DNA of 64,000 bases. Origin: Escherichia phage KookSpook. Positions 6,810 to 8,629 of the stretch are shown piece by piece. The stretch is from the sequence record PP925842.1. One strand, given 5' to 3'. Made by a program: the position numbers and the translations under genes. Numbering within the stretch: position 1 is the stretch's first letter; each line of letters starts with the position of its first letter. The notes under the pieces were generated by a model that had not been told where the DNA came from, did no database searches, and saw only the letters and a program-made list of their open reading frames with translations.

Positions 6810-6838
6810 TTGACATTTTCGCTGGGGTAGTGTAAAGT
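6810..6838 (+). promoter_or_regulatory. sigma70-type promoter of plus-strand three-gene cassette
   Basis: TTGACA 6810-6815, 17-bp spacer, TAAAGT 6833-6838; AGGAGG RBS before ATG 6891. Confidence 0.55.
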
Positions 6839-6890
6839 ATATGTTATGGATGAGTGATCAAAGAGACACACATTTTCTATATACTAGGAG

Positions 6891-7919
6891 GTGTCAAAAA
6901 TGACAGAAGAAGTAACTAAGAGTCCTGAGACCGTCGCTAGCGTTGCAGCAGAACTGCACCGTCACGAGGAATCAGATAAGAAAAAGTGGGAAAAGCTTAA
7001 AGCTCAAGAAAGGGCTGATGAGCATCATTATCATCATCACCATCATGAACACTATGAGGAAGATGATGAAGACGACGAAGAAGATGAGCATGAACATCAT
7101 GGTTATCACAAATATGGAGAAAGAAAAATGCAAGAACCAGTAAACGTATTCACTAACGGCTTCCCTGGCATGGGTGCATTCCCAGCTAACGCAGGTGCTT
7201 TCGGTGGAGAAGGTATGGGTCTATTCGGAGCTATCCTAATTGGTGCTCTATTAACAGGCGGATTTGGTGGTTTCGGTGGTTTTGGCCGTGGTGCTGGTGT
7301 AGCTGCTGAGGGAACTGCTGTGGACGCGATCCTTTCTAACCAAGATACTGCAAGTATTCTAGCTGCAATCAACACTACTCGTACAGAAGCTAACCAAGGC
7401 ACTGGGGCTGTTCTAAGCGCAGTAAACGGTGTAGGAGCTGCTCAAGCTGCTAGCACTCAGCAAGTTCTGACTACTATCTATGGTACAGGTGCTAATCTGT
7501 CAAACCAGATCTGTGCTGAAACTCGTAACGTTATTCAGGGTCAGTTTGATCTTTCTCGTCAGATGGATCAATCTTTCGCTGCTAACCAGATCGCTCGTGC
7601 TCAGGACAAGTTTGATACCGCTCAGATCATGTTTGCTCAGTCTATCCAGACTAACAACCAGTTCGCTGCTGTAGCTGCTCAGGCATGTGCTAACCAGAAC
7701 GCTTTAGAGCGTCAGATAGCTGAATGTTGCTGTGAACTTCAGACTGCAATCGCCGGTGTAACTACTGCGCGTATTCAGGATGAACTTGATGAATGCCGTC
7801 TACGTGAAGCAATTGCTGCAGGTAGTGGTGCAAACGGTCAGGTAATTAATCAAATCGCTGTAAGTCTTGGTGCTATCACTCAGACTCTGGCTGGTCTGCA
7901 GGCTAAACTGCCGGCTTAA
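6891..7919 (+). CDS. His/acidic-rich protein with Gly-rich hydrophobic segment and Ala/Gln-rich C-terminal domain
   Basis: 342 aa; HHYHHHHHEHYEEDDEDDEEDEHEHH tract; GAILIGALLTGGFGGFGGFG glycine-zipper-like segment; host-like codon usage (GCT/CGT/CTG rich) unlike AT-rich neighbours. Confidence 0.6.
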   Translation: MSKMTEEVTKSPETVASVAAELHRHEESDKKKWEKLKAQERADEHHYHHHHHEHYEEDDEDDEEDEHEHHGYHKYGERKMQEPVNVFTNGFPGMGAFPANAGAFGGEGMGLFGAILIGALLTGGFGGFGGFGRGAGVAAEGTAVDAILSNQDTASILAAINTTRTEANQGTGAVLSAVNGVGAAQAASTQQVLTTIYGTGANLSNQICAETRNVIQGQFDLSRQMDQSFAANQIARAQDKFDTAQIMFAQSIQTNNQFAAVAAQACANQNALERQIAECCCELQTAIAGVTTARIQDELDECRLREAIAAGSGANGQVINQIAVSLGAITQTLAGLQAKLPA

Positions 7920-7941
7920 TAATTAAGGGGAGGAGCCCATT

Positions 7942-8370
7942 ATGAGTAAATATGGTTTTGTAAACAACGGATTTAATCAACAAATGGGCTCCCAGCAGCC
8001 CGTTCCGGGGCTAGATAACCCCTACTTACAACAGTTGCAACAGAGATTGGCAGAAGCACAACAAATGCAAAATTCCATGCAAAATCAGCATGGAAACATC
8101 AATCAAATGCAAATGCAGCCGCAAATGCAAATGCAGCAGATGATGCCTCAACAGATGATGCCTCAACAAATGCAGCAGATGCAACAACCTCAACAGATGA
8201 CTCAACAAACCCAACAACCGCAGGTATCTGCGGAAGGACAAGCTGTTCTAGCCCTTTTCGAAGACTTCGCTAAAACAGAGGATGGAAAGCAACTTGTATC
8301 ACTTATGGGTAAGTTTAATAGTTTCTGTCAAAGTCAAGTTGCAAAAGCGCAAAATGGGGAGAAATCCTAA
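7942..8370 (+). CDS. Gln/Met-rich low-complexity protein
   Basis: 142 aa; MQMQPQMQMQQMMPQQMMPQQMQQMQQ tract; GGAGGAG-like RBS upstream. Confidence 0.55.
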   Translation: MSKYGFVNNGFNQQMGSQQPVPGLDNPYLQQLQQRLAEAQQMQNSMQNQHGNINQMQMQPQMQMQQMMPQQMMPQQMQQMQQPQQMTQQTQQPQVSAEGQAVLALFEDFAKTEDGKQLVSLMGKFNSFCQSQVAKAQNGEKS

Positions 8371-8379
8371 GGAGTTTAT

Positions 8380-8574
8380 ATGTGTTGTAGAAAACCTACG
8401 TCATGCTGTCCAATGCCTGTAGCACGTTGTTGCTCTCCAGCAATGTTTACGCAAATACCGGCGTTCAATCCCTTTGCCTTTAAACCTACTCTTATCCTGC
8501 CCCCTAGAGTAGATTTTCAGTCAAGATTGGCCTCCCGTATGGGTGGTTGCTGTAATAAGAGTATATGGTTCTAA
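8380..8574 (+). CDS. Cys-rich small protein
   Basis: 64 aa with four CC pairs; AAGGAG RBS 5 nt before ATG. Confidence 0.4.
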   Translation: MCCRKPTSCCPMPVARCCSPAMFTQIPAFNPFAFKPTLILPPRVDFQSRLASRMGGCCNKSIWF

Positions 8575-8589
8575 AGAACCAAACAATAA

Positions 8590-8629
8590 AACCCCTGGTC
8601 GAAAGACTCAGGGGTTTTTCTTTTTCTTT
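8590..8629 (+). terminator. Rho-independent terminator of plus-strand cassette
   Basis: ACCCCTG...CAGGGGT hairpin followed by T-run. Confidence 0.7.

Follow-up and report, generated by a model that had tools for sequence, protein, structure and literature searches.

The 64,000-nucleotide stretch of Escherichia phage KookSpook analysed here (PP925842.1; hereafter the window) raises the question of what a compact block of three plus-strand genes, at positions 6,810 to 8,629, is doing amid genes that face the other way. The original prediction took this block for a self-contained cassette of His-rich, Met-rich and Cys-rich proteins that may sequester or traffic metal at the membrane. We found an operon that is transcriptionally autonomous, dispensable and horizontally mobile, and in each of its three proteins (g1, g2 and g3) cysteines are nearly the sole positional invariants. 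We tentatively read it as encoding an accessory membrane complex that would act on the infected cell. Its novelty is that of an uncharacterised system unmatched by any known family, not of a demonstrated new mechanism. Phage T5, which carries the same operon, is a classical model phage, and the operon has nonetheless remained 'hypothetical' for 20 years.

An autonomous and dispensable operon

The cassette is an autonomous transcription unit with the following parts.

6810..6838, plus strand: sigma-70-type promoter (TTGACA 6810-6815, 17-nt spacer, TAAAGT 6833-6838), equivalent to T5 promoter P12
6839..6899, plus strand: conserved 5' leader with the AGGAGG Shine-Dalgarno sequence at 6886-6891, from sequence and conservation in relatives
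6900..7919, plus strand: g1, 339 aa, T5.077, PHROG 8119, from open reading frame (ORF) and homologue alignment
7942..8370, plus strand: g2, 142 aa, T5.078, PHROG 7894, from ORF, alignment and AlphaFold2 (AF2) model
8113..8205, plus strand: 15-nt tandem repeat units encoding the Met/Gln-rich tract of g2, from repeat search and alignment
8380..8574, plus strand: g3, 64 aa, Pro/Phe-rich micro-protein, T5.079, from ORF and lineage comparison
8588..8630, plus strand: intrinsic terminator, hairpin 8588-8618 and U-run, from folding and T5 annotation (inverted repeat I2)

About 240 T5-like Escherichia and Salmonella phages match the region at 88-90% identity, and the three genes in it correspond to T5.077, T5.078 and T5.079 of T5 (NC_005859), each annotated there as 'hypothetical protein'. 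All three lie on the plus strand behind a Shine-Dalgarno sequence (ORF list and sequence), and the flanking ORFs and every tRNA of the first 20 kb lie on the minus strand, so that the predicted antisense arrangement was borne out by the ORF list and tRNA calls. A lone match to the promoter consensus was not above chance, as shuffled sequences yielded as many matches in our promoter scan. The predicted TTGACA promoter is instead supported by the 'promoter P12' placed upstream of T5.077-T5.079 in the NC_005859 record and by the invariance of TTGACA, TA(A/G)AGT and the upstream TTTTAAAG across seven T5-like lineages; the hexamers are unchanged even in two of the contigs compared (L023 and L024) in which the surrounding sequence has diverged. 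The predicted terminator also held, its hairpin folding with a free energy of -19.8 kcal/mol (z = -3.7; 0/200 shuffles equally stable), and the T5 record labels it an 'efficient bidirectional rho-independent transcription terminator'. Translation of g1 almost certainly starts at ATG 6900, because the alternative GTG 6891 falls inside the AGGAGG at 6886-6891.

The original prediction proposed comparing conservation and synteny across T5-like genomes, and this comparison found the trio kept together and all three genes under purifying selection. Ratios of nonsynonymous to synonymous polymorphism (pN/pS), pooled across T5-like loci, were 0.19 for g1, 0.22 for g2 and 0.35 for g3, and we therefore regard all three as genuine coding genes. 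The possibility that g3 is a chance or non-coding ORF was ruled out by its retention of MCC and CC in eight lineages, its pN/pS and the closure of the other frames.

The cassette is a dispensable accessory operon of the kind known in phages as a 'moron': in addition to its own promoter and terminator, it shows a clean absence in one relative, a patchy distribution and no fitness effect. The convergent SPFH neighbour (described below) was found in 430 phage records and g1 in 219 (megablast) or 222 (tblastn), and about half of T5-like genomes lack the cassette. In Tequintavirus Bas33 (HildyBeyeler), the SPFH gene and the T5.076 homologue are just 287 bp apart, and alignment with T5 showed a single clean deletion of 1,677 bp comprising the Shine-Dalgarno sequence, g1, g2, g3 and the terminator (Bas33, L087 4100-4386; T5, L003 10036-11712). 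In Bas33 the 5' leader persists behind a promoter decayed to TTGATT, both fused to the SPFH terminator region, and the junction falls in a short run similar on both sides, reading ...CTTAAA up to the junction and ACAGAAAAGCCC beyond it. A CRISPRi-ART screen of T5 scored T5.077, T5.078 and T5.079 as 'Not Fit' with function unassigned, and the same source annotates the adjacent T5.076 as an anti-retron gene (PMC11879866 supplement). In T5-like Yersinia phage phiR2-01, as described, the early region has no plus-strand block (PMC8624392). The Bas33 RNA-seq supplement was considered as evidence of transcription and set aside as unusable, Bas33 having no cassette; in the literature searched, we found no transcript or protein evidence from a cassette-bearing phage. 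Because cassette-plus and cassette-minus T5-likes occur naturally (T5 and Bas32 versus Bas33), the function can be tested directly with existing material.

The proteins, their relatives and their neighbours

Each of the three proteins contains an invariant cysteine despite identities of 26-45%. Of the metal ligands on which the original prediction was built, cysteine is invariant, histidine is recurrent but unalignable and lost in some lineages, and methionine is lineage-specific.

The N-terminal part of g1 has a helix bearing an 'LHRHE' motif, then a tract of His and acidic residues (40-70) and an 'EPVNVF' motif. Within the tract, D40-H67 is a 28-residue run composed solely of H, D, E and Y. 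Residues 105-129 form a glycine-zipper hydrophobic segment whose mean Kyte-Doolittle value (1.72 over 19 residues) exceeds the threshold for a transmembrane (TM) segment, and this is followed by an amphipathic helical domain (~138-335), the C-terminal ~200 residues being an Ala/Gln-rich helix. Cysteines are located at 204, 263, 276-278 and 297. An alignment of homologues at 38-99% identity showed the glycine-zipper segment, C263, CCC276-278, 'DEL..RL' and the C-terminal tail (312-334, NGQVINQIA.SLG.ITQ.LA.LQ) to be invariant. The predicted composition of g1 (His/Asp/Glu tract, glycine zipper, Ala/Gln-rich domain and CCC) was therefore found as described with the exception of C-x-x-C, which does not exist.

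The 28-residue run is unalignable, and the more distant lineages with the trio lack it; the N4-like and P0020-24 lineages, in which the His tract is absent, retain all three genes. We had considered it as pure lineage-specific noise, a view dropped after a family-wide count, restricted to members with >=30 residues before the TM and including many closely related T5-like sequences, in which His made up 7.9% of residues before the TM and 0.4% after it (29 family members). At least 4 His precede the TM in 20/29 members, and distant members have His runs such as KHKHKHQHKHE or HHHHH and HxHxH patterns. His enrichment ahead of the glycine-zipper TM is thus a recurrent compositional trait and is not positionally conserved. 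Among 52 family members with the hydrophobic segment, the first charged residue upstream is D/E in 49/52 and the first downstream is R/K in 47/52, which under the positive-inside rule hints at an N-out/C-in orientation of g1.

The host-optimal, GC-richer codons noted for g1 were confirmed. Of the 49 long ORFs, g1 has the highest GC content (0.471; median 0.39) and ranks third by Fop, the share of codons that are optimal in E. coli (0.675; median 0.46). Since GC at third codon positions is just 0.30, an ordinary value, the GC excess reflects Ala and Gly content. The codon choice suggests that g1 is highly expressed, as had been proposed. The top E. coli-optimal codon fraction in the window, 0.80 and far above the others, belongs to an ORF near 36888 (plus strand, 255 aa).

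The AF2 model of g2 (overall predicted local distance difference test, pLDDT, 61) has a helix at 27-50, a disordered Q/M/P linker at 51-96 (pLDDT <50) and a confident helical hairpin at 97-138. Its invariants are the N-terminal helix and a C-terminal block, 'TEDGKQLV..(M/I)GKFN.FCQ', with invariant C129-Q130; no signal peptide was found in the sequence. The predicted Met/Gln-rich tract with M-x-M spacing is present but not conserved: it is a lineage-specific expansion of the 15-nt repeat within the predicted disordered linker, confined to the T5/Epseptimavirus lineage and variable in length. The label 'cAMP-dependent protein kinase' given to g2 in some records was rejected as a low-complexity artefact.

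As predicted, g3 is a 64-aa peptide with four CC pairs (2-3, 9-10, 17-18 and 57-58), its N-terminus reading MCCRKPTSCC. The ORF is retained in eight lineages at 49-91 aa and is otherwise nearly unalignable, with M1, C3, CC17-18 and P42 as its conserved residues. It begins with MCC in every lineage (one has MSCNCGC), and the second CC pair is always present. The g3 sequence has no signal peptide, no hydrophobic h-region and no L-x-x-C lipobox.

The profile and structure searches proposed in the original prediction found no known family or fold, but joined the C-terminal domain of g1 to an undescribed viral group. Searches of Pfam, NCBIfam, PADLOC and PDB sequences with g1, g2, g3 and distant family members returned nothing meaningful, and Foldseek found no structural neighbours of the AF2 models of g1 and g2 in PDB or BFVD. 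PADLOC gave no match for g1, g2, g3, the SPFH neighbour or the zinc-ribbon proteins described below, and neither Pfam nor PHROG lysis families matched g1-g3. Metal-binding families (metallothionein, HMA/CopZ, CusF/PcoC, His-rich Ni/Zn chaperones) were likewise without a match in Pfam, NCBIfam or PDB.

On profile and motif evidence, the C-terminal domain of g1 is placed in a previously undescribed, seemingly virus-restricted CCC-motif family. A hidden Markov model search with the g1 profile over 1.84 billion representatives gave 104 matches, among them 5 close and ~100 distant proteins, and ~75/101 distant proteins share the core '...QLEACKN..L..Q(L/I)AECCCE(L/I/V)KE......RLRD(E/A)L'. Alignment of the g1 profile to 33 distant members with hhalign gave a probability of 99.3% (E = 1e-20) over g1 residues 200-313. 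Family members were defined by (A/E)(E/D)CCC(E/D)(L/I/V)(K/Q) after a 'QL.AC.N..L..Q' helix and before 'R(L/I)(R/Q)D(E/A)L', an arrangement that g1 has at residues 259-301 (AQACANQNALERQIAECCCELQ...ARIQDELDECRL). PHROG 8119 and 9288, both without an assigned function and cross-matching each other, are phage subsets of this family, and the N-terminal glycine-zipper segment is present in part of it. The family is not covered by Pfam, NCBIfam, PADLOC or PDB sequences, and we found no names for its proteins through cluster look-ups, PHROG ids, motif strings or the literature. The CCC domain, found in very different phages and in giant viruses, is a candidate new virus-specific module. Its chemistry is unusual, three adjacent invariant cysteines being rare.

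A motif scan of IMG/VR gave 50 loci, many of them from giant-virus metagenome-assembled genomes (GVMAG) or contigs of 200-470 kb. The giant-virus members are 280-600 aa long and full of 'ERNG.DTR'-type repeats, with CCC close to the C-terminal end and tails rich in Gly/Pro and Arg/Ser beyond it. Their neighbours (family B DNA polymerase, ubiquitin hydrolase, collagen repeats, P9_TM, MSV199 and DUF5672/5872) form the gene set of nucleocytoplasmic large DNA viruses (NCLDV). Members with 'ERNG(G/S)(D/E)TR' and 'LLLEQQK' repeats were observed at L032, L041, L046, L048, L050, L054, L071 and L073; the sequence after CCC in giant-virus members may be Gly/Pro/Tyr-rich, Arg/Ser-rich or a PPPC-repeat tail, and some loci have tandem paralogues. 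We found no literature on giant-virus CCC proteins. Two pattern scans of one genome for each of 185,579 prokaryote species gave 0 and 1 matches, the sole match being on a 48.8-kb contig of a Flavobacterium metagenome-assembled genome, and from these counts we regard the domain as restricted to viruses (phages and NCLDV) at the sensitivity of the patterns, which are narrow and make the absence from cells approximate. None of the 50 distant loci had an MCC micro-ORF beside the CCC-family gene, which makes g3 specific to the subfamily described next.

The trio subfamily was defined as g1 with the invariant tail, then g2 ('TEDGKQLV...KFN.FCQ'), then an MCC...CC micro-ORF, and the window cassette has this order. 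The cassette is horizontally mobile among unrelated phages, in support of the foreign origin that had been offered as one option for g1. Besides T5-likes, the trio was observed in an N4-like contig (L026), adjoining the virion RNA polymerase; in two Pseudomonas phages, RSP and KPP23, and a 62-kb contig related to them (L025, L085); in a lambdoid contig (L082), in inverted orientation, with the Q antiterminator on one side and the holin-lysozyme-Rz genes on the other, a classical moron site; and in a 17-kb contig (L083), where an endolysin and an Rz-like spanin immediately precede it. Directly upstream of g1, each of the four non-T5 contexts has a divergent gene for a Cys4 zinc-ribbon protein of 47-57 aa with a basic tail:

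L082 5744-5917, L083 5759-5914, L026 4756-4911 and L025 4746-4892, minus strand: zinc-ribbon gene, from motif conservation

The protein follows the pattern M..RYCP.CG..L..CPECG.WF.K.R.DQ.YC.P.CRQRK, with weak matches to the NinG zinc-ribbon region. In the lambdoid contig, the interval separating this gene from g1 contains a palindrome (L082 5947-5977, 14-bp arms) that could be an operator. No zinc-ribbon regulator was found in the window by tblastn, and T5-likes, which are without the gene, carry a strong constitutive-looking promoter in its place.

CCC-family genes outside the trio were also found at accessory positions. One (L027) is 750 bp from an M15 endolysin, another (L084) comes after an M15 endolysin and has a transposase and a Tad2-like anti-Thoeris gene as neighbours, and a third (L031, SU10-like) sits between the major capsid protein and the adaptor with intergenic gaps of 340 bp and 180 bp on either side. 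In the second of these, a 43-kb phage seen in many samples, the segment L084 9219-11101 places the CCC gene between a DDE transposase and the Tad2-like gene, after the lysis genes, and looks like an accessory or anti-defence islet.

Two further signals flank the cassette in the window.

6772..6799, plus strand: hairpin CCCCC-N11-GGGGG followed by CAATTTTT, directly 5' of the promoter, from sequence reading
8640..8671, minus strand: intrinsic terminator of the convergent SPFH gene, outside the cassette, from sequence

The upstream hairpin resembles an insulating terminator; close T5-like relatives keep it, and the remnant left by the Bas33 deletion does not. The convergent neighbour (8695-9642, minus strand; T5.080, annotated 'lipoprotein') encodes an SPFH/Band-7 membrane protein (Pfam E = 2e-19); its terminator stands back to back with that of the cassette, and no NfeD-like partner gene was noticed beside it. 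Two small minus-strand ORFs, 5366-5551 (61 aa) and 6394-6627 (77 aa), have DnaJ-type C-x-x-C-x-G-x-G zinc-finger repeats, and in phage ESCO30 a homologue carries the mistaken label 'antitermination protein Q'. Rfam found nothing but tRNAs in the area. One of these (5771-5845, minus strand, 40 bits) is missing from the ARAGORN list, and another (10336-10409, minus strand), called 'Ser' by ARAGORN with the odd anticodon ACT, scores just 37 bits in Rfam; both may be degenerate or unusual, comparable to the tRNA-like stable RNAs of the T5 record. The window is T5-like (Markadamsvirinae). The 100%-identical record MG065692, titled 'Campylobacter phage C13' and listing Campylobacter jejuni as the host, is probably mislabelled or derived from a contaminant phage, and 'Campylobacter phage A148' is a similar case.

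What the cassette may do

Our preferred explanation, to which we assign a probability of about 0.35, is an accessory complex in which g1 would be a membrane-anchored oligomeric scaffold joined to g2 and g3 through thiolates and acting on the infected cell. Under this explanation, g1 would be a highly expressed single-pass membrane protein, its glycine-zipper TM dividing a charged N-domain, in many cases rich in His, from a long helical and amphipathic C-domain, and would oligomerise through the helical domain and the zipper. The invariant C-terminal tail, specific to the trio, may recruit g2, a putative helical-hairpin adaptor with one invariant Cys, and g3, the MCC/CC micro-protein. The resulting complex on the inner membrane would be bound by cysteine thiolates, either metal-bridged or disulfide, and might alter the envelope or the ion or metal state of the infected cell, with a benefit only outside laboratory-culture conditions. 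The neighbours at accessory loci fit a moron (the anti-retron gene T5.076, the Tad2-like gene and transposase of L084, and lysis cassettes).

Several observations weigh against this explanation. No defence, anti-defence, metal-binding or lysis family was matched, and the AF2 model of g1 is weak (pLDDT 53) with no oligomer. The topology is ambiguous, and export of a highly charged N-domain of ~100 residues without a signal peptide would be unusual. Binding among g1, g2 and g3 is inferred solely from their co-inheritance. Many CCC-family members are without a TM, and these, together with the copy in the L031 head module, raise the possibility that the domain originally had a structural role and not one directed at the envelope.

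Dedicated metal handling, the direction taken by the original prediction, is a doubtful alternative. Here, the glycine zipper would serve as pore or anchor between a His/acidic capture side and a Cys acceptor side, for soft metals (Zn, Ni, Cu, possibly Hg/Cd). Glycine zippers are common among channel-forming proteins, and Ctr1 combines a His/Met-rich ectodomain with a GxxxG TM and a Cys/His tail; MerT and MerA use vicinal Cys pairs in Hg(II) transfer, and metallothioneins contain Cys-Cys. The His asymmetry around the TM, with the HxHxH runs of distant relatives, is consistent with such handling, as are the invariant CCC and the conserved CC pairs of g3, whose N-terminal Cys-Cys would remain after Met removal. 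The unconserved Met tract of g2 argues against it, as do the loss of the His tract in N4-like and P0020-24 lineages with a complete trio and the many family members without a TM or His region. There was also no fitness effect in rich medium (PMC11879866 supplement). With neither a metal-binding family or structure match nor C-x-x-C, metal sequestration or trafficking is retained as a live sub-hypothesis only, and disulfide or thiol-mediated assembly may explain the cysteine pattern equally well. If the Cys and His residues bind metal or sense redox, the cassette would be a new viral route to manipulate host physiology; if they merely cross-link a scaffold, it would still be a new structural family.

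A role in inter-phage competition or defence, the membrane complex excluding superinfecting phages or countering or triggering host defence, we consider rather unlikely. The autonomous signals, antisense insertion and patchy distribution suit a moron of this kind, as do the classical insertion sites (the Q-holin gap of a lambdoid phage and positions just past lysis cassettes), the anti-defence neighbours (T5.076 and the Tad2-like gene), the dedicated upstream regulator gene outside T5-likes and dispensability in a defence-poor laboratory host. This evidence is positional only, however, and no PADLOC match was found. The family is practically absent from prokaryotic genomes, and hence from prophages, and its abundance in giant viruses of eukaryotes disfavours a function specific to bacterial immunity.

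More speculative, and improbable on present evidence, is the view that g1 represents a pan-viral domain family, common to tailed phages and giant viruses of eukaryotes, whose invariant Cys triplet would be a thiolate centre (metal-cluster or redox) within an oligomeric helical assembly, with the phage trio forming a membrane His-to-Cys relay, a 'metallo-viroporin'. Such a relay, if true, would reprogram the metal or thiol state of the host, and no such phage system has been described.

Lysis and structural roles are less likely for the T5 cassette, and both readings are very improbable. In the former, g1 would be Rz-like (TM, coiled coil and Cys) and g3 Rz1-like, as a spanin-like pair or in lysis timing. 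A lysin or holin lies <3 kb away in 5 independent lineages (T5-like, L082, L083, L027 and L084), and the layout of g1 (TM, helical domain, Cys) resembles an i-spanin beside a small, Pro-rich, Cys-bearing g3. However, T5-likes encode their holin, endolysin and Rz/Rz1 at another place in the genome (PMC4342426, PMC11664485), L083 has its Rz-like spanin next to the trio, the cassette is not needed for plaque formation and giant-virus homologues have no lysis context. Identity as a canonical spanin was ruled out by the missing lipobox of g3, spanins elsewhere, dispensability and the lack of an Rz/Rz1 profile match. The structural reading, a CCC domain serving as a cross-linkable coiled-coil block, disulfide-oxidised in virions or at assembly sites, would suit a virus-only family common to phages and NCLDV, the L031 member in an SU10-like head module, the long repeat proteins with basic Arg/Ser-rich tails of giant viruses and the high codon adaptation of g1, but the T5-like promoter is of the early sigma-70 type, the TM-anchored g1 is dispensable and missing from half of T5-like genomes, the gaps around the L031 copy resemble those of an inserted moron and T5.077 is not known to be on the published lists of T5 virion proteins.

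Comparison with known systems

The cassette resembles phage morons and lysogenic-conversion cassettes (Q-S inserts in lambdoids, HK97 gp15) in its autonomous promoter and terminator, opposite orientation, patchy distribution, insertion sites, membrane protein product and dispensability. It differs in occurring mostly in virulent phages, in its near absence from prokaryote genomes and in belonging to a family also found in giant viruses, which is atypical of morons acting on the host. Two-component spanins (lambda Rz/Rz1) share with it an anchored protein with a long helical domain and Cys (g1), a small Pro-rich Cys peptide (g3) and a frequent position beside lysis genes. Unlike spanins, it has a g3 without signal peptide or lipobox, a ~100-residue N-domain in g1 and a third partner in g2; there is no sequence or profile match, T5-likes and L083 also carry canonical spanins, and the cassette is dispensable.

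Likenesses to metal and channel proteins are by analogy. The His-rich domain, glycine-zipper TM and Cys-bearing tail of g1 recall Ctr1-type copper transporters and single-pass viroporins, and an oligomer of such a small single-pass viral protein could form a pore. There is no homology; a single TM combined with a helical domain of 200 residues sets g1 apart, and metal or ion conduction by it is purely hypothetical. The CC and CCC conserved within variable sequence likewise evoke the vicinal cysteines of MerT/MerA and metallothionein, from which the cassette differs in its lack of sequence similarity and of C-x-C or C-x-x-C; the conserved Cys of g3 number only 4, and its composition is Pro/Phe-rich rather than Cys/Gly/Lys-rich.

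The last comparison is with vaccinia A27/A26, a coiled coil with intermolecular disulfides at the adjacent Cys71-Cys72, tethered to the membrane through A17. The motif, length and partners all differ, and the resemblance is one of analogy. What the two may have in common is a viral coiled coil that uses vicinal cysteines to hold partners at a membrane, and g1 has relatives in large eukaryotic DNA viruses.

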